Assembly (NCBI GenBank): GCA_010093745.1
Contig: MU005991.1
Coordinates: forward strand, 69,678 to 133,677
Origin: Piedraia hortae CBS 480.64
Taxonomy: Eukaryota
DNA: 64,000 nt
Direction of reading: 5' to 3'
Part shown: positions 5,901 to 63,919 of the stretch, one piece after another
Numbering within the stretch: position 1 is the stretch's first letter
Layout of the letters: each line of letters opens with the position of its first letter
Translations under genes and position numbers: made by a program
Notes under the pieces: model-generated
Database searches by the model: none
The model's input: the letters and a program-made list of their open reading frames with translations, nothing else
What the model was told of the DNA's origin: nothing

Positions 5901-6571
5901 TTTGGTGGAAGGGGAGGAACGATTTCACGTGGAAACGGCTCTCGGGGTTAAGGGGGTGCTTAACGGTTCCTTCTCGACGACATTCACCGGGAGCGAGGAA
6001 TGCGAGCGCCAATGCACGCGGGCGGCGCGTTCATGATTCGATAGGCGGCTTGGTATATTAAAGATAATCCCCCCGAATTAGCCGTATTTTGGGCGGATTT
6101 CTTTTCTCAAGTACCACCCGTCAAAGTCGTGTAGCATCAAACCGAGTTTTGGATGTTTGGTCAGTGGTACAGTCCACGCGAACAGCGATTGCTTGCGTTT
6201 TCCGTATTTGAACTAAGGAGTCTAAAATGGGACTGCGGACTACATGTATCTTTACGTAGCTTGCTAGGTATTATTGCAACTCGGAGAGATTTGGACCAGG
6301 TAACACAGGTCTGACCGCTTTTTTTCAATTGCCGCAATGGACCAACAGTGGGATTGTAGTGTGACTGCAGAGTGCGACATCCAACAACCCAACGGCCGAC
6401 TATTCCCAATTGGGACTTTCGTCTCGGCCGCCTTGAGAGAGTCCAACGCCGTGAAATGTTTGCCTAGAGCCGTGTTTTTATTCTCTTGTGGCTTCTCTTT
6501 TGTCGGGCTTGGCCGGAGTTGTAATTTTGCTGGCGGCTGCCCGGTGAGAGAGGATTTTTGACCGGGAAAAA

Positions 6572-8776
6572 ATGGACGATGAGGATTCCAAAGCAGTAAA
6601 GGCCCGTCGGAACAGCCACGTCTCGCCCGGCTCGTCAAGTGAAGGCAACAGTCGGGATGGCCGACGACGACTCGAGGAGGAAGTGTCCGGTCCGAGGCTT
6701 TTCCGCACCACCAGATCGATTGCTAAGGGCAAAAAACCGCTGGAGCTTCTGGATCTTCCTTTGGACATCTTGCGCGGGATTGTCAAAGAAGTAACGCACA
6801 CCAACGATCTGACGGCGCTCGCACTGTGTCATAGCTCCCTCCATCGGCTCGTCATCCCGCACTTGTACTCTCGCTTCGACATTGTATGGCCGGATACCAA
6901 TGTCCATACGGAGCCGAGATCGGGCGTCGATGCGCTGACGTTCGGACTCGCCACGCTTGTTAAAGCAGAAGAGGTATTTGGCGAGGCTCCGGAGCAGCTC
7001 AGGCCGGATCATATGATATCCAAAAGACTCGGAAACCACTATGCCGAGTTTACCAAGAACTTCTCACTTGGGAACGGTCCGCCTGATTGGGTGCAAGACT
7101 ATCTCATCTTCAAAGACTCTGGTAAGATGCTGGGTACGCTGGTCGGCCTCGCAGTTGCTCGCATGCGATCTCTTGAAAGCTTTACCTGGGATATGCCTAC
7201 GGGAATCTTGCAAGACGTGTGGTTGTCGCTTTCTTCGCTGAAGAACAAGCACTCTCCGTGTCGGCTGGAGAGGGTCTGGGTGAGGTTTCATAACAACTCG
7301 ACCATCATGTCGCCGGCGTTGCCTCTGAGTCTGCAGAGCCGGCCAAGTCAGGGGAACCCGACGATGCCGCATCTCGATTTTTCGGCTTTGGACCGTGTTG
7401 AAAGACCTTCATTCTCCATCTTGCCACCTCTGAAAAGCCTCAGCGTGCTAGAGGTGGACGAGCTGTCATACCTGGATGAAATGTCAGTTCTAATCGCCAA
7501 CTCTGTTCATAAACTGCGCGAGTTGCGAGTAGGAATTGCGAGACATGCCCTGCACGCACAGTGGGCAAGTTGCTGGGAAGGCAATGATTTGCAGCAGGTA
7601 GATTGGGAGTATCCAACAGCCGGGGCAGCAACCATCGGCCCCAAACGTTTCGGCGGTGTGCTTGGCATACTGACAGGCTTCGTGCGGCCAATGAAGTCTA
7701 TAAAGACGTCTCCAGCGGATACAGCACCTGTGCGTGCACATCCTCAGCTGGCAAAGTATCGTAGTAGGCCTCGGAGTCAAAATCTGACCGAGAAGCAGTG
7801 TCTGCAGCTCGAGGTTCTAGAGCTAGAGCTCGTTGCGCTATGCGTACCAGTGCTGCAGCAGGCCATCGACTGGTCGAGATTGACATCTCTGACGTTGCTT
7901 AAATGCGCCGACCATGAGCGGCTCTGGAAAGCGCTTTGGAAGACGTATACCCCAGCATCAAAGCAACGCAGCCGCTCCTCAACACCCTCCAAAGACAAGC
8001 AGCCCGAACAGCCACAACCCCTCGAGTACCCCTTGAAGCTCACCAAAATCCACACCGACACCGTGTCATCGATGCTGTTGACGTTTCTCAAAGAAACCCT
8101 CGGTCCGGACACGCTCGAAGCCCTGTTCCTCCAAGACACTGTAACCTACGACTCGAACGTAAGCGTCAGCTCAATCTTTAAAGGTCCCGTGCGACGCCAC
8201 CGCAACAGTCTCAGAAAACTCCTCATCGACAGTAGCGACAAGGCTGAACCTCAGCCGCAGCAGCCAGGACAGCAACAGCAGCAACAACAACAGACATCCA
8301 CACGATGGCAGAAATGGCTCATCAGTCGCGAGCTGCTGGCCTTTATCTGCAGCGGCAAGCTACCGATGCTCAAGGAGCTGGGCATGGCGATTGATTTCCA
8401 AGACTGGGTAGGTTTTGACAAAACTTTCAGGCATAGACTGACTCGTCCAAAAGCACTTTTTCCTGCAGCATTTGTCATTCGTGCCACAGCTGAGGTCCTT
8501 GTACATTCCGTATCTGGCGTCGATGCAGGAAAACGGCATTGACGCAAAGGAATTGGCGCTGCAGATTGTGGACATTGTGGCGCTGAAACCGACTATTGAG
8601 TTGTGTTACCTGGGAATCGGGTGTAAGTGTTTTGAGATTATGGATGATAAGTTTGGTTGGGATGAGAGGATTCATGTTCAGGTGGAAGGAGGCAGTGAGG
8701 AGGATGAGTCTGAAGAAGAGTATAGTGATGAGGAGAGCAGTGGGGAGGGTGAACACGATGTGGACGATGATGATGA

Positions 8777-23704: not shown

Positions 23705-26700
23705 TCAGAAGGAGTCTTTGCCCGTGAAATACAGAACAGTAAAACCAGTCTCATTGTTGGGGTAAACCACTGTCCGTCCGCACGAAAACCAACCATGCGC
23801 TTCCAGTTGATCAGGGCGTTTGAACATCTTCCGACCATCGACAGTGATCCAATTTTCTGAAGAGTTCAATAACCGAATTTGTCGGCCTTGGAACATCGAA
23901 GTTGATCTTGTCGCGGCAGAAGAGTCCGCCTGCGCTTGGGGCTGATTGTCTTCGTTGACTGCTAACCTGTCCACGACAGGCAGGAACCTTGACGACACGA
24001 AGCGACCATCGATAAGTATCGAACCACCATAAGGACCCTCAACGAGTGTGCGCACAATGCACGCCTTTTCAATGTCCCATTCATATATCCCACAAGAGTC
24101 CCAAGTGTAGAGCATCTGACCGTCTGCTGAGAAACATGCCTCCTCCATTCGGTCTTCAGAGCTCAGTACCAGTGGGGTTTGTGACTCCGGTCCCCAGATT
24201 CTTATTGTGTAATCGCTTGATGCCGATGCAAAGTTCTGCCCATCTGGAGAAATCGCTATAAGACTGATCTCATCCGTATGACCCGTGAACTTTTCTCGCA
24301 GAACGTCACGTTCCAGATCGATAGCCCATATCTGACCGTCGCCCAAACCGCAAAGGAGTGTTTTGTTGTCCGGGTATAACGCAAGAGCTGTAGCACTGAG
24401 CTTTCTCAGTACATCTGCATCCATGTCCCAAATTAACACCACATTTTTCGGGGGCCGGCTTAAGGAGGCAACAACCACGAAACGACCGTCCGATGAGATC
24501 AGGATCCGGCGGTTAGAGGTTTCAGAAAGCCTGTCATCTGTTAATCGCCGTTCGCAAATTCGCGTTTCAATGTTCCAAACGCTGAGCTGATTTGGTTCAG
24601 AAAATGAAGCGAGTGATCGTCCATCGGTTGACAGTGCAACGATAGAGTTGTTAGTCCGATGCTGCGGGCTCTTCAAGAGCAGATCCACGTCCAACTGTGT
24701 AACTCGTCCACCCCAATGCCCCACCCAGATTGTGTTCCCGTCAGGAGATGATGTCATGGCTGTGATTCCACTGGTTTTCAGGGGCAGTTTCATCGGCCCT
24801 TGTTGCGTTTGAAAGTCGTACACATAAAGACTATTCCAGTCCCCAAACAAGACTCTCTGGCTGCCTGGCGTAACCATGATATAAGAAACGTACGAAGACA
24901 CGTCTTTTTGCATGATTTGGTCAACTTCGTGGGTGGTGCAGTGAAACACCGATATCGTGCGAGACCCAAAGACAACGAACTTGCCGTTTGGCGAAATGGC
25001 GATTCTCAGGATGGCACTACCTACTTGGCATAGTCTTTCAGGCCCAGCTTGTGCGCTCCATTTCCAGATGTCTGTGGATCCCGACACCAGTGTGTCATTA
25101 TCTGACGAGAACGCCATGCACGGCACTGAAGAGCTGTGACCCTCAACCACCTGTCCGGCGTAGTTTTCTGCGTAGCTTTCTGCGTCGTTTTTGGCGTCCT
25201 TGTCGGCGTCCCAGATGTAAATCGCACCGGTGTCCAAGCCCCAAGCGGCATATCGGCCGTTCGGAGAGACGGAAACGCTTTTTGCTTGGCTTGGGAGTTT
25301 GAGATCAATTCGTCTGGCGTCGTCTTCCAAATTCCACCTCCAGTACCCCGCGCGCACTCCTGCAATGATCACAAGGTCTTCTTTGGAGAACGCTGAAGCA
25401 ACCTCTTGAATATAGTGATATGGCATTTCAATTTCTGTACGTTTTTCTTCGGTGCCGCTTTCAACATCCCATAGTCGCACTGTGTTGTCACTGCCAACAG
25501 TGACAAGCCGTCTCCCGTCGATTGAAGGTGCTATCGACAGTATATTATCAGTATGCCCCATCAAGGTTTGCAACACAAAGCCCCAATCAGTCGTGAGTGG
25601 CGGCCAAACTTGCAAGAAATCTTCCATCTCACTTCTGAAGCTGGTTCGTACGATACTGTTGCTCGGCGCAGAAGCCGCTGCTGAAAGGTATGTCTGAAGC
25701 GGTGTATCGCTGATCAGGTATCGGATTGCTGGAACCCATCTTAGGGCATCGGCGACAAAGGCGTGTAGCTTGGGCGAAGATTCCGACTGCGCAGAGTTAG
25801 GCATGCTTTTGTCGGATTGAAACGGAAGCAATACATACGTCGATGGCCTTTTGCAGCTGCTTTAGGCATATTATCATTTCCCCAAGCTTGTCCAGCCAGG
25901 CCATTGCCTCTGTCCAATAAAGAAGAAATGTGCGTAGGAAAAGATCTACTTGCCCGCCATCTTTGATTGCCTCATTGCTATGGATCGCATGGCTGGCCCA
26001 GTAGCGGCAGGCGTACTGGGCTGACTCAGGAACATGCCTGTCGATATCTTCGGCGGGCACATCCTCGCGTTCCGTTCCAGGACCTTTTTGCTTGCAAACA
26101 TCACGGACCAACTTCTTCTCGAGCAAATTTAAGCATTTACTCATGAGCACGCCATGTACTTCTCCTTGGTCAATCCAGAATTCAGAACGGTCCTTGAGAC
26201 TAGGATCCATGAGGAAATCTCGAAAAGATTCGTGGTAAACTCGTACCGCTGCCCGTGAACCCGCCTTGACCTCCTTACCACTTGGAAACTCAATTACGGA
26301 ACTCAAGGGATTGAGAACATTAGCAACAACCATAGTATTCCCTCCCAAGAGCTCCGTAAGTGCCGAGATTGTGAGAGAAGAATGGAGAACGGCCAATGGC
26401 TTGATGACCTGGCCAAACCAAATCGGCCACTTTATGTCGAGCTTAGCAGCTTGGTTCAAAATGTCCAGATAGATTGCAGTCAGCGCATCTGTACCGGTAG
26501 ATTTGAGCCCGTTTACCCGTTCTTGAAGATGTCCTGAATCATTTCTGGCATCCCTAAGGATTGTTGAAGCCGCGATGAATAGTGGCTGAGATATCTGAAC
26601 CAGCCTGTCAACAACATCTTCGCCAGGCCATTCATCTCCTAATTCATCGGGAACTAAATTGTTCTTGCGCTCCTCGCGAATCTTCTTCAGCTCATTCCCG

Positions 26701-28343
26701 CAATACCATCTTAGGTCATTTTCGATGGTACTCGATTGCCAGTCTTCAAGCCTCTCGTACCGGAGATGCTTGGGCTCCAATTGGCCGAGCGTGCCCCAGA
26801 TCTCATTGTCCGTCCGACTCGTTACGAATACTCTCAGGTTCATAGAGGTATGAGAACTAAGCTTTGGCCAGAGTTTCATGGCTTGCCCTATTGCTCGTCT
26901 GGCGTCGCACTCATCGAGTGCATCGATGACAATCACCCTGACATCAATTGCTGAGCCCGTGCTATACCCTGAAAGCGGCCCCTCGATGAGCATCTCGAAC
27001 TGCTTTTCCAAGGCCTTTGAAATTTCATCAGGAGGAGAGTTGCGAGAGGCGTCAGCGACAAAATCGCTGACGCTAGGTATGAAATAAGCCATTTGATGGG
27101 CAATGGTGGGAAACAGATATTGAGCTTTGCTCAGTTTGCTGTCGCCGCCGCGCTTAAAAAAGAAGCTGCCCACCAAATACCCCTGTTTCGACAATTCATG
27201 GGCAACGGTTCGAGCAATTGTGGATTTACCCGTCCCAGCTTTCCCGGATAGCCAGAATACCCTTTGCTCATCGTCGGTGGTGGCCCAATCTTGTATGGTC
27301 TCTATGATATTGACTCGGGTACCGTCTAAACACAACTGAAAGTCGCCATCCTGGTTGTCACCACTGTAGTCCATCGAATCGTAAGCTGCTCCAGCAGCTG
27401 CCTGTAGAGAATTAAGATTTAGCGTTTGTTGAACGCCCTTGACTCTCTCGTTGACTTCTTCCTGAGCCTTCTTCAACGCCTTAAGCTGCTCCTTGACCCA
27501 AGCCTGCTGCTTTTTCGACACCTCATCATTTACAGCTTGACGATGGATTTCAACAGTTTCCAGCATCCTGTCGTGTTCAGTCTTGAACTCTGGTATAACT
27601 TGACCAGTCAGAGAGTGTATCATCCGCTCAAACTTGCTCATGTCGCATGTGTGCAGAGCGTGCGCCACGAACGTCAGATTGAGGCCGTAGAGCTTGACGA
27701 TATTGGCATACAAATGGCCAGTTGCGGGCGTTGCATCAAGCTGGCCGTATATGTCAAAATACACGTTCAACAGGTGGCCTGTATCTAGCATCGTTTCGAT
27801 TCCTTTCAGGATCGATTCACTCTGCTCGTGAGCCTTCTGAGCTAGCTAGGGAAACGGTGTTACTCAGTGTCATACTTAGACAGAAGTACTGCTTACCATT
27901 AAGAGAGAGCGGATGCCGGCCCACGGCAGGCTAAGAACCTCTGATTTGGCATTCGTCGCAACGTTAACTACTGGCGCAAATTGCAGGATTTGACAGGCAA
28001 TCTTTCTCATGCTGGCAATCCATTGATTGGACTTTCTAGTCTGATTTTGACTTCGCAAGGCAAGCACTTCAGCTGCGTCTCTCTCGAGGTCACTGTTTGA
28101 ACCAAGCTGCTTCTCGACAAACTTGCGATCTTCGGTGGCAAGATCATCAAGGGCATCAATGATTAACTTGTTCTTGTTTCGAAAGGGGTTGTTTGGAGCT
28201 GGCCCGGCAGCTAAAGCATGGACGGGCGATTTGTTTGGTTGCGTGGGCTGTGCTGTGGACGCTGAGGCTTGTGAAGCGGATGGGGGCGTGTTCGGGGGTT
28301 TAGGCTTCCCCTTCGACTTCCAGCGCTTCGGCCCTACTGGCAT
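23705..28343 (-). CDS. Fungal NLR-like STAND protein: N-terminal helical domain, NACHT, WD40 repeats; exons 28343-27897, 27845-25839, 25786-23705
   Basis: CLDGTRV, Walker A WLSGKAGTGKST, Walker B VIVIDALDEC, HESFRDFL, YACRYWASH, GH..SPDG..SAS.D.T.RIW repeats; both introns canonical and frame-preserving. Confidence 0.93.
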
Positions 28344-53975: not shown

Positions 53976-54927
53976 TCAGTATTTACGCGAGGCTGAAGGG
54001 ATGAAAGCTGACATACCAGCATTATCGACCACTTCGGGCTTGGGAATCTCAGTTTGTCTCGCGGGGAATTCCATGACCGAATCCGAGCGCTCTCGTCCGT
54101 AAGCGGGGAACGAGGGCATGTGCGGGCCAGGACCTGGACGCGGAACCGGCGTATTCGCGTCCATAGTGGGCTTGCGCGCACGTAACTTGTCCACGACGCT
54201 GGTGTGCGTTGGGACACGCGCGAGGCTGAGATCGCTTGCACTGGCTGCCGAGTTTGAACCCGGCCTGTCTTGATTCATTGGGAAGAAATTGAGATCATAG
54301 TTCTCCGACTCTTCGCAAATGCGATCGGCGACAATGTTGAGTTTTTGTAAGACTAAAACGAAGGTTAGTTGGGGTGGGAATAGCTAAACGCGATAGCAAC
54401 TTGCCCTCGGGTGGGACGTCTTTCCCCCGATGGGTTGAAACGTGATCAAAGAAAAGGTCTGGACCGCACCAGACCCGGCCTTCAGCATGGCCGTATTGGA
54501 GGATACAGATTGGACATTGAAACTGATATTGCCGTCTTTGCACAGCAGCTTGCTTTACGTGACTCTTTGCTAGGCCGTTCTCAGCAAACCCATCAGTTCC
54601 TACACGGACAGACATACCCAGAAATGCCCATCGACACTGCAATCCCCGTTGGTCAAATCTGACAGAGGCTTTCCACACATAGTCGATGCTGGAATGGCCT
54701 TGGAAAGCGCACCCTTTCTCGGCGCAGCGATACGTCGTCAACCCGGAAGCAGAGTAAGAGTCCTGAAACTCGGTTCTCCTCTTCAACGCGCCCTACAAGG
54801 GGTTAATAACTCCGCTTCTCTCCTACGAAACAAGATATGAAACCTTTTTGTCTCCATTTTGGAGTTTTACAGCACAGGGACAGAAGCCTAACCAATTATT
54901 TTCCCGGGTAGGAAGATGGCAACTCAT
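53976..54927 (-). CDS. Conserved fungal hypothetical protein with Cys/His Zn-finger-like motifs; 3 introns, the last GC-AG (54404-54353)
   Basis: PTRENNWLGFC, C....CAFQG, RWAFLAKSHV, CPIC...DHVSTH, YDLNF; the start may lie further upstream. Confidence 0.75.
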
Positions 54928-55609
54928 GATGGTAGACGCGTCGGCTTTGTTGTCGCGCTCTAGGACATCTTCCTCCCTTACCGGCGCGTTGAACGGGTTG
55001 AAATGAGCAGAGAACGACAGGAAATTAAACGGCAATGGAATGCGTCAGACGGATCATTTCTTGCTTTTTCCTCCGATGCGCTGGAGTTTCACCCCGCCAT
55101 CCCGACTTTTGCGGGGTCCGCGTGGTACGTACCGGAACCGTTCCCGAACACTCGGCCCGACGTCGGGACTTCTTGGGGCCACGAATCAGTGCAAACGCTT
55201 GAACCCTTCAAGCCCAGCTTTGACCGACTTGTGCCATATCATCCGCTAGGAATGTGGCTTACTCGCCAAAAGACCCCTTTGCGTCATTTGGCCGTTGAGG
55301 ATCCAGAATATGCGATCAATCCAACCATTTGACATTTGATCCAAGATAACACAAAGGCCACTCGAAGCTATACCAATCAGAGTATATATCTGGTGCACGG
55401 ACCGGATCTTATACACAAACTGAGCAATCAACCGTTATGCACCATTCAGGAACACCGACAACTTTAACGAATATCAAGCATATGCCATTCGGCTAATCAT
55501 CTACGCTGTAACGCAGAACACTTATCAAACTCTATCACCATAGAAGCAAACACTTCGTTATCGTCCTCACAGACGAGAAACAGCATACGGCTACAACCTA
55601 TCGAAAGAC

Positions 55610-56569
55610 CTATGGACCAGGAATACACCTCCCGGATCGAGTTCTCATGCCATCCCCACCCACTCCCGCATTGGGCTGCTGCTTACGCGCCTTCTTAACA
55701 TCCGACGAGTTACTAGCCTGAGGAGCCGCACGCTTCTTGTTCGTCTTCTTCTGCGTCGTCTTCTTATCTCCACCCTTCTTATCCTGCGAAACTGGACCGC
55801 TATTTTCTTCATCCTCACCCTTACCATCACCCAGCTCGCCCTCTTCTCCACCGAGAACCTTAACCTCACGGCCCAAACGTCTGAGTCTCTCAGCCCCGAC
55901 CTTGGCCGCCTCCCTCCCCAGCTTCAAAAACAAAAACCCCAGCTCCACCTCCCTCAAAATCTCCGGCGTAGTAATATCACGCACCAAATCATCAGGTCTC
56001 TTCCTACGCTTGAACTTCTTAAACTCCTTCCACTCGCGCGGAATTGTCTGGATCGAATTTCCCTCTAGAATCGGCCCACGGAACGACATTCCCAACGGCG
56101 GCGGATTATCCATATACTCCAACTTATCAGACAATTCAGTCGGCGATTTGGGAGGGCTGTACACCTGCACCTTAATCTCTTCCTTCGCCAGCTGCTCATC
56201 CCCCAACCCCGGAGGGAAGGTGTACTTCAGCAACATGTCTTGGAACTCCGGCGAAGGCAACCACCCTTTCATCATGCGCGCTTCGTCTTCAGCCAACACG
56301 CGGAAGCGGTTACATTCAGTAACGTGCGCAGAGCCGAATTCGGACAGCGCAATGAAGTACGGTACCGTCCCGAATTGAATCTCGACGTACATGGGGCTGT
56401 TGGTGTTGACGGGGATGGGAAAGTGATGTGATTCTTCGAAGCGAAGGGGGGCGTTGGCGATGGTCAACGGCTCGGAAGCCGCGCGGGCGAAGGGGATGAT
56501 GGGCGAGGCGGTCAGATTGCAGGGGCTGGAGCCTAGGTTCGTGGGCATGGTATAATGCGTTTCGGACAT
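55610..56569 (-). CDS. Orphan family member A (domain X + shared MDNPPPL domain + basic tail), 319 aa
   Basis: Open frame; paralogous segments at 61445-61864 and 59362-59910 with conserved residues. Confidence 0.8.
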   Translation of the reverse strand: MSETHYTMPTNLGSSPCNLTASPIIPFARAASEPLTIANAPLRFEESHHFPIPVNTNSPMYVEIQFGTVPYFIALSEFGSAHVTECNRFRVLAEDEARMMKGWLPSPEFQDMLLKYTFPPGLGDEQLAKEEIKVQVYSPPKSPTELSDKLEYMDNPPPLGMSFRGPILEGNSIQTIPREWKEFKKFKRRKRPDDLVRDITTPEILREVELGFLFLKLGREAAKVGAERLRRLGREVKVLGGEEGELGDGKGEDEENSGPVSQDKKGGDKKTTQKKTNKKRAAPQASNSSDVKKARKQQPNAGVGGDGMRTRSGRCIPGP

Positions 56570-57759
56570 GTTGGATGAGTGGGTAGGGTAAGAGTGTTGT
56601 GGAAGAGGTGTGCATGGGGAGATACGCGGAGTGATGAGCAGCGTGCCAAAACATGAGTGTGCTCTGAAAAGAGTAAGCAGTGCGGAATGATGAGCAGTGT
56701 GGGTGGATGGGGAGCTCGGATTCTTGACCGTGTGGCAGGAAACATTTCCAATTGGTGTGCAAGGATCTACGAGGACGCGCATGCGTTTGAAGAATTCATG
56801 AGCACAACATAAACAACGGGTTCAACGCTGCGGTTGTGAGGCAGACAAGCGATGAGTGTTCTTGTTCTCGAAAGATTAAGGGCAACGCAGTCTTTGCGTT
56901 GTGCTGGATGGCTTGCTCTTCTGTCAGGGACCTTAAGCACTCCCCGATAAGCATTACCTACATCTGAATGGAAGGAAGCGAAGAGCTGGACACCCGAGCC
57001 TGGATATGGCGGATCAAGCTCACACAAAATCCTGCTGCTTTATCCAAGTGCCTATGCGTGTGTGGAGGCGAAGTCGTAGTCATCTGACGTCCGCTATATA
57101 GCTACAAGCTTTGTACCAAGGTATCCTTTCCCCTGCGATGTTGGTGAAGCTAGTCTCGTTCGGCAGAATTTTCTTGAGAGGTCGCGAGATGATCAAGGCA
57201 TTCCTATATCAGCAATTTGAGCAATGGACAGGGCTGAAGGTAGAGTTGGGATGTCTATGCACATGTTTATTCAGCACCAGCCTTCCTTTTTCTTCTCCAT
57301 GCAACCCTTGCGTTAGTTGAGTCCCTTTGAGTTCTTCCACGAACAATGTACTAAACCCCAAGCAATGCAATCCCGTATGTAGACAATCACGCCCGCCTCT
57401 AAGTCCTAGGGTGGTCAACAGGAAGCGATATACCATTTCCTGTCGACCACCCAAACGCACATTGCTCGCCGCGGAGGGTTCAGCCTCTAGAACATACACC
57501 TTTTGTTTCAACCAATCGACCCTATCAAATCAAACGCTGGTGACAACAGAGGGCAATGTACGATAGAATACTGAGATCGTCCCGGCTGCAGCCTTGCAAT
57601 CCTTGTTCATCATGAATAGCAGGAATGCTTCTCTGCTTCAGAACCGTTTTGTAACAAAGGCATGGCGCAGGTAACACAGAAAGTCTACTCCCTATCTTCT
57701 TTGACATGTACAAGGACCGGACCCACAACAAGCACGAAATCCCGCTGGTTGGGGTTCTG

Positions 57760-58095
57760 ACACAGAGAATATCCACACACTCCAGGCGTCGGTAGCTCAT
57801 CCATCACTGGCGCATAAACCTCCACCCTCTTCTTCCCCTTCCCCCCTCTCAGCGGTGTCTACGTCGCGGGCTTGGACTGTCCGCTCCCGTTTTCCGTATA
57901 GGAGCCGAAATCGAGCTCAGATATCTCCATGACGTAGGCCTGCACTTCGGCAGGCATGATGATAGGACCAAAGCCGTTAGGTGGAAGAGTCATCTTGGGA
58001 GTACACTCGCTGGGGTCGTAAATGCTTTTGAAAGAAGCGCAGGGGCAGGTTCCCCCCATGACGGAGAATAGCATGCAAACGTCGATGTAGGCCAT
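57760..58095 (-). pseudogene. Orphan family member C (Cys-rich domain Y), premature stop
   Basis: Aligns with member B; TAG at 57861-57859 where B has CAG; homology continues (KKRVEVY..ELP) and then frameshifts. Confidence 0.75.
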
Positions 58096-58159
58096 GTTAC
58101 TGGAATGGTTAGGTTGCAATGCGGAGGGTGTTGAGGGAGGCTTACAGCTCGGTACAAAG

Positions 58160-58190
<31 letters not shown>

Positions 58191-58212
58191 TGTGTGTGTG
58201 TGTTTGTGTGTG
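58160..58212. repeat. Compound (AG)n(TG)n microsatellite
   Basis: Read directly. Confidence 0.95.
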
Positions 58213-59097
58213 CGTGGTTTTTGGTGGCACAAGATGGAGGGCAGTGGGCTGTTGTCACCACGCTATATTGGCGCATAAATCAGGAGACCTTGAACGCATT
58301 CAAGCAGTGTGGTTCAAGATAAGGGTATGGGTGTTCGTACACAGCTCCCATACTGAGGTTGTATGGATCTAACTCCAAGCGACGTGACTGCAATTGCTTA
58401 TGCCCCGTTCTGGATGTGTGGGTAGCCAGATGGAGGCTGCTATCCAGTTACGAATTTTTACTTTCGATTGAGAAGACATATGCAGGGGTTGCGAGCCCGA
58501 GGCGATGCGGACGTCCTGGAGGCAAAGTCGATACGTCTAAAAAAAAGGGAAGGAAGAAGGAGTATATGCAAGTAGGGCACGAGCAGTGTGCTCGTGCCAA
58601 GCCTCGTCGGTCGAGGCGGTTCGGGCCGTAATAGTCTTGGCAAAAGATTTGGGGAGGTGTCCTGCACCACCCGGCATAATTCAAAACTCTTCTCCAGCGG
58701 GGTTCTATTTCTCTACAGATATAGAGACGTCTGCAGCTATAGCCTCGGATCCTTTTTTATGCGAGCGTACAAGGAGCAAATGATAGAGAAAGGATAATAT
58801 GCTCCTTAGTGGACATCTTTTTGTGAGTGCGCAACGGAATAGCGATAGAGATAAATGTGCGACAGGAACGATGAAATATTTATATTCATTTAGGAGAGTT
58901 AGTCTGACTCGGCTTTGGAAACCCTTAGCCACTATGACTGGCAGGCAATCCATTCTTCCTCAAGCATTAAAGCAATGGAATTAGAACAGATAGCTTGTTC
59001 TTTGTGGAATTCTATCTTCCAGCTTAGTCGGTATGTGCATCCCAACGGCGTCCATCCTTTCTCGTCGTGGTCTTACCACAACTTGATGGTTTCTCTT

Positions 59098-59401
59098 TGT
59101 CGGAGGGGTGAACCTCCGAGGACTAAAGTGGAGCGGATATCAACGACAAGTATGTTCACTCAATTTTGACCGAAGGGTGGATGTAGATGTCTATCTCTAT
59201 GTGAGGTGGTGTTCGAAACCTTCCCCACACCACCTCAGTCTAACCGCATTCGCCAGGACAACGTCAGCGAACCATGCCCTTAAGCATGAACGAGACAATG
59301 ACCCGTCCCAGGGAAAACTTCCTCTATAGAAGTAAAAACCCCAAGAAGTTTCGACTTCTATCTACAGTTCTGACCATGGTGGGTGCCACATCCTTCTGAC
59401 A
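59098..59401. mobile_element. Solo LTR (304 bp) with 5-bp TSD CTCTT
   Basis: TGTC...GACA termini; CTCTT at 59093-59097 and 59402-59406; second copy at 63615-63919. Confidence 0.92.
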
Positions 59402-59910
59402 CTCTTTGATGTCTCCTCCCGTATTCGGGCCTCCTGCAGCATTCGAATGTCCCTAAACATGTCCCCGGGAAGCAGTTTCCTCTTGCGCCTTAGCTCCTTC
59501 CATTCGGCCGGGACCGGATGCAGGCTGTTTCCAGCAAACATCGGGAATCGCTTGTTGAGATCGAGAGGCGGCGGATTGTCCATATTTTCTAGGTGTGCGG
59601 GGAGCTCGATTGGAGACTTCGTCCGGGTGTAAATCTCCACCTTTTTCCTCCCCGTGTTCTTCTTGGGTGGTGTCTGCGCTGCGGACTTGGGCTTCTTGTC
59701 TCTCTTCTCCGTGTCTGAGCCAAAGTCGAGGGTTGAGAACTCCACAAGGGAGATCTGCATTTCGGCGGGCATGGCACAAGGGCCAGAAATTTCGGGCAGA
59801 AGAGTAATCGTAGTAGTGCATTCGCCAGCATCGTATGGGCTCTTGTACAAGGCGCAAGGGCAGCCCCCCTCTGTCATACCGAGAAGCGTGCAGGCATCAG
59901 TGTAGTCCAT
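59362..59910 (-). CDS. Orphan family member B (domain Y + shared MDNPPPL domain); C-terminus replaced by LTR sequence
   Basis: 182-aa frame; homologous to members A and C; last about 13 codons lie inside the solo LTR. Confidence 0.7.
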   Translation of the reverse strand: MDYTDACTLLGMTEGGCPCALYKSPYDAGECTTTITLLPEISGPCAMPAEMQISLVEFSTLDFGSDTEKRDKKPKSAAQTPPKKNTGRKKVEIYTRTKSPIELPAHLENMDNPPPLDLNKRFPMFAGNSLHPVPAEWKELRRKRKLLPGDMFRDIRMLQEARIREETSKSVRRMWHPPWSEL

Positions 59911-60720
59911 ATTAGTGGGACAGAAAAGATGTAGAGCGAGTGGTGTGTGTAATGTTGAGAGAAGCTCGCAATGAAGCGAAGAGTGCAATTGTGGTGGTGG
60001 CAGAAATTGGGGAAGTGGGCTGTAACCACGCGTCGATATCAAATGAACTTCGGCGCGTTGAGCTGAACAAAACCATTGGACGAAGGTGATTCACATGACC
60101 TTTTTGATACTAATCCGGAAGTTGTTGCAGCTCAGGACTCGGCCCAATATATACATACCCTTTGGAAAGCTGGAACTTTTGATGCGCTTGTCGTAGCTGC
60201 AAATCATACGCTCAAATCATTCTCAAAATAGACTGACATCTTGTAATATTCAACGGAAGAAAGGTAGCCTCTGTTCTCATTTCATGGGATTCTCCTCGCC
60301 AGTCAACTGGAGAGGATTTGTGTTCTTACCAATGCCGTCTGAGTCTTTTCTGCCATCTGTTAGCCTTGCAGGGTGATGGAGCGAGGACCTGTTTTGCGAA
60401 CCCCTTAACGATGGGAGAAGGACGTTGTTGTGAGAGTCTGAAACCTTATTGGGCTCAAGGGAGTTTGCTTTGACAATTGTTGGTTTGGCTTAGTCGCAAA
60501 CAGAGGTCAACGTTAGCAACGCAACGATGCTCTTTTTGGACTGCCAAAGGGAAATTGCGGGTCTGTTCAACCATTTGTCCATAATTCAACGGCAAGAAGG
60601 GCGGCATATGGCATAACGGCGCAGGTAGGCTGCATCTGTGCAGTGGGAAGTGTCCCTCTTGTTGATTCTTGGGATGATAGTTTGATGAGACAGGAGGTTG
60701 GAGATTAGCAAACAGACAAA

Positions 60721-60740
60721 ATATATATATATATATATAT
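60721..60740. repeat. (AT)n microsatellite
   Basis: Read directly. Confidence 0.95.
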
Positions 60741-61444
60741 AAACGAGCGATCGTTTTCACTGAAAACAAACCAAGCTGCATGAGGCCCGTCATGTATCCC
60801 TACAGACGTTTTGCTTGGATGTATGGCCATTCAGTACATGGTTTTTACACTCACAATACATTGGATAGGATGGACTGCAAAAGACCAATACCTCGGCTGA
60901 TCATGCCCATCCGTAAATTCCTTTTTTTTCGTGTTTAATGCCGTCCGAAAATCACTTAAGAACGGGTCACACAGTTACGCAGGCGTACATTACAAACAAT
61001 GAGATTGAACCTTTGAAGCGAGGATGATCAGCAACGTTTTGCTATTGTCTTCGAACAACGTAGTAGGGATGAAATGTGACTTTGGATCGTGCAGTCGAAC
61101 TGTGCTTACGAAACGTTTATTTCTAGCTTTATTTGTCGTGACAGTGTTCATCCTCTCTTGCTAGAGTTGCAGCCACCCCACACTTCATTCTTCCCTCGCC
61201 CATTTTGAACTCTTTCTCCTTCGGCTGTCTGATGATGAAGTATTGAACATTTTTTCTTTTGCACATTGCTGATGCTTCGGTAATTGTTGCTGGCGTTGCA
61301 TGTAACCCAATCCCTCTTCTGAGGACGTTTGTTTATACACCGAGGCCGTCTCTATCCAGACCTGCAGACGATTATTTCGTCAAGTTTGTAGCTTTCAAGG
61401 GAACCCACACTTTCAAAACCTGGATGTAATCTTCTTCTTGGCGA

Positions 61445-61864
61445 TCATCCCGCTTTGCAGTCTGACGATGTCATATTCAGTTGGGTCGATATAAAACTCG
61501 CAGTTATCGGCTCGTTCTTGTGATGCATTCTCGAATGATGTTCCAAGTGGACCAGACCGGTGCAGGCTGGCTGATGGATGCGTAAGCAGCTGCATTCGGT
61601 TATGGGCGCGGAGTCAAACTTGGATAGGGCGAGGAAAGACGGGACCGTGCCGAATTGGATCTCGCTGTACATCGGGCTGTCCGTGTTGACGGGGATGGGG
61701 AAATGGTTGGGTTCTTCGAAGCGAAGGGGAAAGGTGGTGATCGTTAATGGCTCGGAGACCACGCGTGCACGGGGAATGATCGGCGAGGCGGTCGGATTGC
61801 AGGGACTAGAACCCAGGTTATTGGGCATGGTATACCCTAAAGTCGAATTTTGCATGCTCTGCAA
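61445..61864 (-). pseudogene. Orphan family member D (domain X only, diverges after TEC)
   Basis: About 80 aa at roughly 75% identity to the N-terminus of member A. Confidence 0.7.
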
Positions 61865-62099
61865 ATGGTCCGTTTATATCCGGCAGCCCATACTGAAGAA
61901 CCTTTCCGCCAGGTTTTAAGTCGGCGGGAAGGGTTTCGGGCTCTCATAGACGGACGAGGAGTTGTTCTGGTCTTCATTGGGGCGCTTCGGTCAGCGAATA
62001 AAGTCGTCGTCTTCGTCATCGCTGGCCTTCCCCTTGAGGAAACGGGAAATGTCGGAGTGATAATTCTCTAGGCTCGTGAGCCGGCTTTCCTCAATGTCA

Positions 62100-62560
62100 A
62101 GGCCCTTGGCAACGGTAGACTTGAGCAGAGGGCCTACTGGGCTTTCAGTTCCGGGTGCTTCTTGAAGATCTTGCCAATCATCGTGTTGGCGTCAGCAATA
62201 GTGAGTTCCTCACTCTGTAGTTGCTTGGTGGTGATGTGGAAAATACCCAGGTGGTTTTCCAGAAGCATCCGCAGCTCCTGGTGGGCAACTGGTTCCAAGA
62301 GCTTGGGCTGAGGTTTTCGTCCTAGTGGTCAAGAAGCGGTGCAAGCTCGAAATACCGCCTGAGCATCGAACGTTGAGGTCCAGCGGATCTCGTTCCTCGT
62401 TACAGGCCTGTAGGCGGTTGAGCGGCGCAGCTTGTCGGCCTGCATGGGCGTTTCAAGAACTTTGCAACGATGTCGGAAGCAAGCAGTCAATTTGCCTGTG
62501 TGGATGGCACCGATTTCGTAAGTTTGTTTAACCATTCCTATTTCTCTTCAGTGTTTGAGG
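62100..62560 (-). mobile_element. Decayed hAT-like transposase fragment
   Basis: KLRRSTAYRPVTRNEIRWTSTF (cf. TRWxS) then FHITTKQLQSEELTIADA...KKHPEL; frameshift and stops. Confidence 0.65.
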
Positions 62561-62859
62561 CATCTCTGACGCAAAACGGGCCAGCAATCTCTGCGACCTG
62601 ATTGAAGGCAGTCTGGGCAGTCTCTTCAGAACTACCACCCGTGAAGACGACATCTCTGCTTCGGTAAAGGACCGCTCTTAGGCCACAGTTTTCCTTTGGA
62701 ACAGCGGAAAGCTACTACGAGATCTTGGCGAATGCGGCCGGCTGTCCGCGGTGGCACAGCTTTGTCGGGGGGCCCCCAATCTGGCTGTGGTTCGGGCACA
62801 GACTTGGTCCCCTTCTCCTCTCAAGTCTCGGGTTCGAACCCGGGCGAGGACTAGACATT

Positions 62860-63420
62860 GCAAACGAACTGGGTGTCCAACTCTTACGAACGCCGGGAAC
62901 AGCATGATACCGTTATACTTGGCTTTCAGGCGAAGATCGCTAGGGAAAATTGAGCTGTACGTGTTCTCAGGATGACACCGCTCTACAGACCATGGCCCAT
63001 CGTAACCAGGATCGCTCTTGGTCTTGCGCTGTCTGGTTCGGAAGACCCAGTGTTTAGACATACAGAATACTGTGGCATACCCCTGCTCATTCCGATGCGG
63101 AATGTATGTCGGAGGGTGTGGTGTTTTTTTTTGTCGTTAGGGCCAGCAGTGGTTCATAATTCTCAAAGTGCAGAGCAGTTGCGACGAGCGGTGGAGTGTC
63201 TGAGGCGAAGCAGAAGGTTGAAACCCAGGGAATTTCAGTGCTCGATCCACTTCATGTAGGGGTCGGGCTAAGCCATGCTACTGGAACCTAAAGGATGTGG
63301 CACAACGTCAGTGTAGTGGAAGAGACTCGCCGTGCGGTAAGAAGGAGTGTTTGTGTTTCGGAAAATAGGAGAAAACGAAGGACAGTGGGTGGCCATTAGA
63401 AATGCGTTGTTGTAAAGTCA
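62860..63420 (-). mobile_element. Ty3/gypsy integrase C-terminal remnant
   Basis: WVFRTRQRKTKSDPGYDGPWSV...NTY (GPY/F-type motif). Confidence 0.65.
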
Positions 63421-63614
63421 ACTTGAGCGTGTCGTGCTCCACAACACTATTCCTGGACGGTCATTCACACCACTCATTATCCTCTCTTGTACGAATATGG
63501 AAGGTGGCGTGACTCATGACTCGGTCCAACATACACCTCTGCGAAAGCTCAATGATACCTGGTCTAAAGTGGGCTCGTAAGAGAAGACCTCTGTTCTACA
63601 TCGGGAAAAAAAAA

Positions 63615-63919
63615 TGTCGGAGGGGTGAACCTCTAAGGACTAGAGCGGAGTGGATGTCAACGACGAAAGTTTTCACTCAACTTTTACTGAAAAATGTGTA
63701 ATGTAGATCTCTATCTCTACGAGGTGAGGTTCAAAATCCCCCCCACACCACCTCAGTCTAACCGCATTCGCCAGGACAGCGTCAGCGAACCATGCCCTTA
63801 AGCATGAACAAGACAATGACCCGTCTCAGGGAGAACTTCCTCTATAGAGGTGAAAACCCAGAGAAGTTTCGACTTCTATCTATGGTTCTGGTCATGGTGG
63901 TTGCTACGTCCTTTTGACA
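63615..63919. mobile_element. Solo LTR (305 bp) with 5-bp TSD AAAAA
   Basis: TGTC...GACA termini; A5 on both sides; aligns with 59098-59401. Confidence 0.88.

Follow-up and report, generated by a model that had tools for sequence, protein, structure and literature searches.

The final 10 kb of a 64,000-nucleotide stretch of contig MU005991.1 of Piedraia hortae CBS 480.64 (positions 69,678 to 133,677; hereafter, the window) contain four open reading frames (ORFs), denoted A, B, C and D, which share three sequence modules, X, Y and Z, and which had been singled out in an initial annotation made from the DNA letters. All four lie on the minus strand and are co-oriented, in the physical order A, C, B, D. 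Gene A (55610-56569) is an ORF without interruption that encodes a long X-Z form of 319 aa; gene C (57859-58095) is a Y-only ORF of 78 aa, closed by a TAG stop at 57859-57861; gene B (59362-59910) encodes a Y-Z form of 182 aa whose last 13 codons and stop lie in a solo long terminal repeat (LTR); and gene D (61445-61864, with an ATG at 61855, giving a gene at 61445-61855) encodes an X-only form of 136 aa. Read in the direction of transcription the order is D(X), B(Y-Z), C(Y), A(X-Z), which is not explained by a single tandem duplication of a two-gene unit. Both A and B are annotated genes, as identical proteins are on record: the 319-aa A letter for letter in a protein collection and in the ESM Atlas, and the 182-aa B letter for letter in a representative protein library and in the ESM Atlas.

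The modules were delimited by comparison between the four proteins, and all coordinates refer to the minus strand. Module X spans residues 6-91 of A (56297-56554; BLASTP against D) and recurs in D at 61577-61834 (BLASTP, tblastn and a DNA match to A), with 64/86 residues identical (BLASTP E 8e-44). Module Y comprises residues 1-77 of B (59680-59910), of which 38/77 are identical in C (49%, E 1e-22). Module Z, common to A (residues 133-199; 55973-56173) and B (residues 90-155; 59446-59643, also recovered by tblastn), is identical at 34 of 67 positions (51%, E 2e-19). The initial annotation had described four minus-strand frames with shared modules, a domain Z common to A and B, and the recurrence of the A head in D and of the B head in C, all of which these comparisons reproduce with the ORFs in the places given for them. 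Past Z, A continues into a helical stretch, predicted as a long helix by AlphaFold2 at residues 202-231 (55877-55966), and then into a basic tail rich in Lys, Glu and Gly. At the DNA level, X shows 77.6% identity along 255 bp and Y 65.5% along 293 bp, and no similarity is detectable for Z; what similarity there is stays within coding blocks and ends sharply at the module borders, the pattern to be expected where dS is near 1 and constraint falls on coding parts alone. When the four proteins were compared with the whole window by tblastn, all matches beyond the shared modules had E >= 0.39; hidden Markov models (HMMs) for modules X, Y and Z, applied to 2368 six-frame pieces of the window, recovered exactly two copies of each, the next best matches lying at E 0.18, 1.6 and 2. 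Depth in a DNA sequencing run over A-D equals that of single-copy flanks (12.5-12.7), which argues only against further near-identical copies.

The differences between paired modules point to selection on the encoded proteins, as had been proposed from a run of synonymous differences between A and D. Numbers of non-synonymous (dN) and synonymous (dS) substitutions per site were estimated by the Nei-Gojobori method with bootstrapping, pairwise values being averages over both lineages. For X (A/D), dN is 0.146 and dS 0.92, giving dN/dS 0.16 (bootstrap 0.08-0.29); for Y (B/C), dN is 0.37 and dS 1.56, giving dN/dS 0.24-0.26 (bootstrap 0.12-0.51); and for Z (A/B), dN is 0.45 and dS is saturated (proportion of synonymous differences, pS, 0.81), leaving dN/dS undefined. 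The 59 A/D differences in X fall 12/12/35 on codon positions 1/2/3 (chi-square p 1.3e-4), so that 35 of 59 are at third positions and the noted synonymous run is borne out; in Z the corresponding counts are 27/17/44 (p 1.7e-3), and in Y, with 25/22/39, p is 0.057. Substitutions in X are symmetric (C>T 13 vs T>C 11), and the dinucleotide indices in A-D (TpA/ApT 0.45-0.73; (CpA+TpG)/(ApC+GpT) 1.14-1.44) were set against the usual thresholds for repeat-induced point mutation, which this spectrum and these indices together rule out as the cause of divergence. Because dN/dS is low, third positions carry the excess of changes and substitutions are symmetric, A-D are to be read as old paralogs under purifying selection, neither recent nor decaying duplicates. 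The separation of X-type from Y-type genes (A/B, saturated) would be the oldest split, followed by B/C and then by A/D.

Two public sequencing runs cover the stretch, named X1 and X2 (not to be confused with module X). Run X1 has a flat depth of ~12.5 and no differences from the window, and so behaves as same-strain DNA. Run X2, whose contigs are unstranded and carry one depth figure each, includes a contig that lacks three segments (54353-54404, 54570-54617 and 54792-54842) within a further minus-strand gene directly downstream of A, here called gene E (53976-55035); read on the minus strand, and in that order, the missing segments have the ends GC..AG, GT..AG and GT..AG. None of these joints occurs in X1, and intergenic cover in X2 is absent or very low. 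We take X2 as RNA on the strength of the spliced joints absent from X1 and of this patchy cover; the run is labelled only 'RNA?', and no run is on record as RNA, so that its RNA nature is deduced from the spliced joints. The contig confirms the three introns of gene E, and introns in the RNA contigs measure 48-52 nt. Gene A is fully covered by X2 contig 8 (54843-57169), which is colinear with 0 differences, has no joints inside the ORF and is the contig that also bears gene E; B is fully covered by contig 10 (59299-60173; 0 differences, no joints inside the ORF), and D by contig 12 (61087-63432; 0 differences, no joints). Cover of C is partial (57688-57909, depth ~5). Genes A, B and D are transcribed; strand, ends and levels are not given by unstranded contigs. 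The frame of A is open upstream to an in-frame ATG at 56782 (56570-56782, minus strand), which would give a protein of 390 aa, and the RNA contig over A extends to 57169, beyond this upstream ATG; the 319-aa start is favored, since the region conserved with D sets in no earlier than residue 6 of that form. Contig 12 runs ~1.5 kb upstream of D (61865-63432); this part has no joints and offers no ORF or Pfam match that convinces, and it may represent a long leader, an independent non-coding RNA or antisense transcription.

Taken together, constraint and transcription bear directly on whether the four frames are spurious or dead ORFs, their resemblance being left over from duplicated non-coding or pseudogenic DNA. 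The absence of relatives (below), the low confidence of structure models, the truncation and scant RNA cover of C, the lack of Z in D and the LTR insertion in B would all be at home in such an account. Against it stand dN/dS ratios of 0.16-0.26 and the third-position excess in X and Z, the persistence of 51% identity in Z despite randomized synonymous sites, the confinement of similarity to coding blocks, and ORFs that are intact and covered by RNA contigs; we accordingly consider it very improbable. The initial annotation had named as grounds for abandoning its view either a match of the domains to a known transposable element (TE) protein or annotated family, or dN/dS near 1 with no expression of any copy. 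Neither was observed: its claim of selection on protein agrees with the ratios for X and Y and with the conservation of Z at saturated synonymous sites, and RNA contigs cover A, B and D.

As far as the searched collections show, the family appears taxonomically restricted, in keeping with the earlier view that its domains are unrecognized and that it is lineage-specific. Pfam yielded no family at E <= 1 for any of the four proteins, and a sequence search of the PDB gave a best match at E 0.75 for A and none for B. Searched exhaustively with phmmer against 1.84 billion representatives, B matched only itself, A and one spurious tandem-repeat protein (P0005, 1250 aa, with 16 matched stretches), which is a tandem-repeat translation and was not accepted as a relative. 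A word-indexed search of a 5.8-billion-cluster collection with A found only A among entries of 175-559 aa, and nothing shorter or longer. Pattern scans built on the X, Y and Z alignments confirmed no locus in JGI metagenome contigs and none in IMG/VR viral contigs, and five family motifs had no occurrence in the literature searched. Matches from the ESM Atlas were also rejected, none being usable by its features and the structural rows all lying at TM <= 0.30 and stemming from models with a low predicted local distance difference test (pLDDT), hence meaningless.

Three of the four genes bear marks of remodeling. The TAG stop of C occupies the position of CAG (Gln79) in B; the two codons after it (Thr-Pro) are conserved, and the 26 codons behind the stop (57781-57858, minus strand) align in frame to B 80-105 with 8/26 residues identical (31%, E 0.001), forming a relic of the linker and the start of Z from which the Z core is lost. 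The tblastn match of B passes through the C stop as far as 57814; further similarity behind the relic is gone, and the Z HMM reaches only E 5.8 there. A match to RPAP2_Rtr1 behind the stop, made by 1 of 91 ORFs, has E 0.0093 and 16.7 bits where the cut-off is 33, and was treated as chance. To judge from this alignment, C is a Y-Z gene that was cut by a TAG codon and whose Z has decayed. The label of Y-Z pseudogene given to C at the outset is supported as to ancestry by the in-frame TAG at the position of Gln79 in B and by the 26-codon relic, but not as to a surviving Z, the core of which is gone. Since Y kept 49% identity while Z, otherwise the best conserved module, decayed, the comparison suggests continued selection on C as a head-only protein. 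In D, X is followed by 43 unrelated residues, and neither tblastn nor the HMMs detect Z downstream in any frame; a dN/dS of 0.16 would be hard to reach had D been neutral for most of its history.

The third remodeled copy, B, is interrupted in its 3' coding end by a 304-bp solo LTR (59098-59401, strand unassigned) with TG...CA ends and a perfect 5-bp target duplication, CTCTT, at 59093-59097 and 59402-59406. Without this insertion the frame of B would comprise 208 codons. RNA contig 10 reaches into the LTR, which indicates that the chimeric 3' end of B is transcribed. A second solo LTR (63615-63919, strand unassigned) also has TG...CA ends, is 84.7% identical to that in B and is flanked on both sides by AAAAA, a duplication that is less certain as it lies inside an A-run. 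Both LTRs have the same orientation and bracket the 5' part of B together with D, A and C lying outside the pair. Summed word depth over the LTR is ~200-fold that of its flanks in the DNA run and hundreds-fold in both runs, figures that are not a copy number. Given separate target duplications, unmatched outer flanks and only 84.7% identity, we read the two LTRs as independent solo insertions of one abundant family; a single LTR element enclosing B and D is ruled out by the target duplications. Two solo LTRs of one high-copy family, similarly oriented within 10 kb and one of them inside B, might nevertheless be taken to mean that A-D derive from, or were carried by, a transposable element. This is as improbable as the dead-ORF account, given that the LTRs arrived independently, that none of 91 flanking ORFs of at least 45 aa encodes a TE protein domain, that A-D lack any Pfam match and are at single-copy depth, and that A and C are outside the LTR pair. 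Specifically, no protease, reverse transcriptase, RNase H or integrase domain, as sought for the Gag/Pol proteins of LTR retrotransposons, was found in A-D or in the 91 neighboring ORFs. The description of the surroundings as TE-rich DNA was therefore overstated, there being two solo LTRs of ~305 bp in 10 kb and no TE protein domain in those 91 ORFs. The accompanying proposal that copies are gained and lost in a birth-and-death process is matched by the TAG in C, the LTR in B and the Z-less D.

Structural prediction adds little fold to these proteins. Models in the ESM Atlas have pLDDT 0.34 (A) and 0.48 (B), and AlphaFold2, run on a four-sequence alignment, gave mean pLDDT 43.9 (A) and 44.9 (B). 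Exceptions to this low confidence are helices from the EWKE motif of Z onward, which lie at 178-188, 192-199 and 202-231 in A and at 135-143 and 148-175 in B and reach a pLDDT of 78 at most; the confident ones are those behind Z (A 202-231 and B 148-175), and helix 202-231 of A, with a block pLDDT of 73-78, is the only part of A above 70. A and B are thus predicted to be mostly disordered, with a helical stretch after Z. Both are basic (pI 8.8 and 8.6) and proline-rich (9-10%). Module Z contains a Ser-Pro site, a PPPL proline motif, the EWKE motif and a KRRKR-type basic cluster, and the clusters KKFKRRKR (A, residues 184-191) and RRKRK (B) resemble nuclear localization signals (NLSs), with a further Lys-rich tail in A; we take these NLS-like and proline motifs to be such from their resemblance to consensus patterns. 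A crude hydropathy test found no hydrophobic segment (highest 19-residue Kyte-Doolittle mean 0.73-1.43 in A-D), and by hydropathy, as opposed to a dedicated signal-peptide predictor, A, B and D have polar N-termini without a hydrophobic window. Four Cys of Y are kept between B and C (C7, C17, C19 and C31 of B, as C-x9-CPC-x11-C), and our guess is that they form a small metal site. A two-copy complex prediction of A 125-245 returned 'no answer' (score 0.00), which is no verdict either way.

We consider it probable, although well short of assured, that A-D constitute a genuine, lineage-restricted protein-coding family in one local array, with a conserved tail, two heads and truncated derivatives. 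The full-length layout would be an N-terminal X or Y, a linker, Z (~67 aa) and a helix. On this account the array would have grown by old local duplications, after which its copies were remodeled: C by a nonsense codon and the loss of Z, D by reduction to X, and B by replacement of its 3' end through the solo-LTR insertion. Several observations weigh against this interpretation. The codon-position bias of Y is only marginal; C is almost without RNA cover and may simply be a dying pseudogene; and pairwise dN/dS, averaged over both lineages, cannot date a loss of constraint. The RNA evidence consists of unstranded contigs from the one 'RNA?' run, with depths that are not comparable between genes, and contigs 8 and 12 also span neighboring sequence. 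The statement that relatives are lacking covers protein, metagenome and viral collections and no eukaryotic genome DNA, and in the large protein collection X was searched via the word-indexed search alone. Low pLDDT with a four-sequence alignment is no proof of disorder, the function proposed below is a reading of motifs, and in a collinear MAFFT alignment of X and Y 11 columns are invariant (Y..L..G..PC..S..E..P..FG.S). Should the family be what it appears, a constrained and expressed set of genes, whose paralogs have saturated synonymous sites, would be without relatives among ~15 billion catalogued proteins, which raises the question of whether this lineage is poorly sampled, or whether orthologs are systematically missed or fast-evolving. 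Further, one tail with two heads, together with selected head-only derivatives, would provide a testable handle on the rise and pruning of modular proteins. Taken alone and without a phenotype, such a family is nothing out of the ordinary for a fungal genome.

The relationship between the two heads determines how far the family may be called domain-shuffled. The N-termini had been described as unrelated, which holds in the sense that no similarity is detectable: hhalign of X against Y gives probability 0.24 and E 0.25, its only segment pairing positions 14-27 with 14-27, and the observed alignment score is reached in 93/1000 local and 145/1000 semi-global shuffles. This dissimilarity fits replacement of a head, and also an extreme divergence of one ancestral N-terminus. 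In the latter case there would have been no shuffling, X and Y being the same N-terminal region diverged beyond recognition and A-D plain paralogs with a fast-evolving head. The order of splits (Z of A/B saturated, Y of B/C at dS 1.56, X of A/D at dS 0.92) fits such serial duplication; the collinear MAFFT alignment and the placement of the sole hhalign segment at the same relative positions in both heads agree with it; and X and Y are of similar length and both end in an FG/FD-S...TE motif. The hhalign and shuffle statistics are nevertheless those of chance, and a common head evolving at the measured constraint should have stayed recognizable where Z keeps 51%, leaving a single ancestral architecture as a serious but less probable account. 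By a slight preference, we favor X and Y as non-homologous replacements (or the outcome of an episode of very fast change) over diverged versions of one head, because Z keeps 51% identity over the oldest split and the heads evolve at dN/dS 0.16-0.26, yet X and Y compare at chance.

What the constrained family does can be proposed only tentatively. The proteins may be small and largely disordered, working via short linear motifs, with Z serving nuclear import and a helical contact and with X and Y as alternative heads. The cluster of short linear motifs in Z, and the helix that follows, would direct the long forms to the nucleus and/or to a common partner, and X and Y would bind alternative partners. 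As the heads of D and C are kept under selection without Z, these head-only proteins, which lack the basic cluster, could act as competitors or modulators of the long forms. Far less probable is the more specific arrangement of two matched pairs, in which the shared head would let D and C bind or compete, and thereby control how active the long partner (A and B, respectively) is or where it is located; if true, the array would amount to a lineage-specific and self-contained pair of antagonists, comparable to those behind killer-antidote or incompatibility systems, and made from a protein family without known relatives. Small orphan genes do act as fungal spore killers, and the lineage restriction of the family, its local gain and loss of copies, and its two pairs, each of a long and a short form with a shared head, are circumstantially in line with a genetic-conflict system (a meiotic driver and suppressor, killer and antidote, or allorecognition) in which the long A and B and the head-only D and C are partners. 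Set against this, every pairwise dN/dS is well below 1, without sign of an arms race; the paralogs are old, with dS saturated or nearly so, and are not turning over recently; and the proteins have neither the membrane segments of wtf nor the kinase or nuclease domains of Spok. We regard a conflict system, which the initial annotation had raised on the basis of the pattern of the array, as improbable, and none of the results obtained supports it.

Several described systems invite comparison with the family. Orphan families of filamentous fungi likewise have no outside relatives, consist of small, predicted-disordered and domainless proteins, are expressed, and duplicate locally with truncation; unlike young de novo orphan genes, A-D are old paralogs (dS from 0.9 to saturated) under clear constraint, and two alternative heads on one conserved tail are no general property of orphan families. 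The wtf genes of Schizosaccharomyces pombe are also lineage-restricted and multicopy, with long and short forms that have most of their sequence in common. wtf drivers are multi-pass membrane proteins, and their two forms arise from one gene via alternative starts, whereas A-D lack a hydrophobic segment (maximum 1.43), have long and short forms that are separate old paralogs, and show low dN/dS. Spok spore killers are large proteins with kinase-like and nuclease-like domains, in contrast to A-D, which measure 78-319 aa and have no Pfam domain. The Crinkler (CRN) proteins of oomycetes resemble A-D in combining a conserved module with alternative, unrelated modules, in their NLS-like clusters, and in having truncated copies in clusters. 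CRN proteins have a signal peptide, a conserved N-terminal half and variable C-termini, whereas A-D carry the conserved half on the C-terminal side, lack a hydrophobic N-terminus and show no sequence similarity by Pfam; the lack of a hydrophobic N-terminal window in A, B and D also sets them apart from secreted fungal effectors. For the insertion in B, and for that alone, gene-disrupting solo LTRs are a close parallel, the 304-bp element sharing their TG...CA ends, 5-bp duplication and many copies.

Gene E, the Cys/His-rich neighbor downstream of A, was considered as a fifth member on account of a GFCPCA motif (compare G-x-CPCA in Y) and a weak collinear similarity to residues 70-117 of B (E 0.23). 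Its membership was rejected as unproven, shuffle tests giving z -0.6 to 1.9 (54/1000 at best), and zinc-finger matches to its protein are sub-threshold (zf-C6H2, E 0.027). Within the array, a (GA)n(GT)n microsatellite (58160-58216) lies ~65 bp upstream of the C ATG and an (AT)n run (60721-60741) lies between B and D; alignment of the 165 nt upstream of each of A-D, inspected for conserved 5' leaders, was unconvincing. Upstream of D, ARAGORN reports a tRNA-Arg (TCG) of 95 nt at 62758-62852 on the plus strand, a doubtful call that Rfam does not recover, either at the gathering score or at E <= 1.

As a whole, the window has the look of filamentous-fungal nuclear DNA, of an ascomycete-like kind. 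Of its 20 longest stop-to-stop ORFs, 14 match ordinary eukaryotic families, including an aspartyl-type tRNA synthetase, PIG-U, a Vps4-like AAA ATPase, tubulin cofactor C, SYS1, a tannase, GH16 and the NPHP3_N/NACHT and WD40 ORFs described below. Housekeeping-type genes extend to about the 54-kb position, the array occupying the last 10 kb, where G+C content is similar to that elsewhere (0.47-0.52). An open frame of 664 aa without a Pfam match lies at 6548-8542 on the plus strand. At 23705-27845, on the minus strand, an ORF with an NPHP3_N/NACHT domain neighbors one with multiple WD40 repeats, and the pair looks like a fungal gene of the NLR type (NACHT-WD40).

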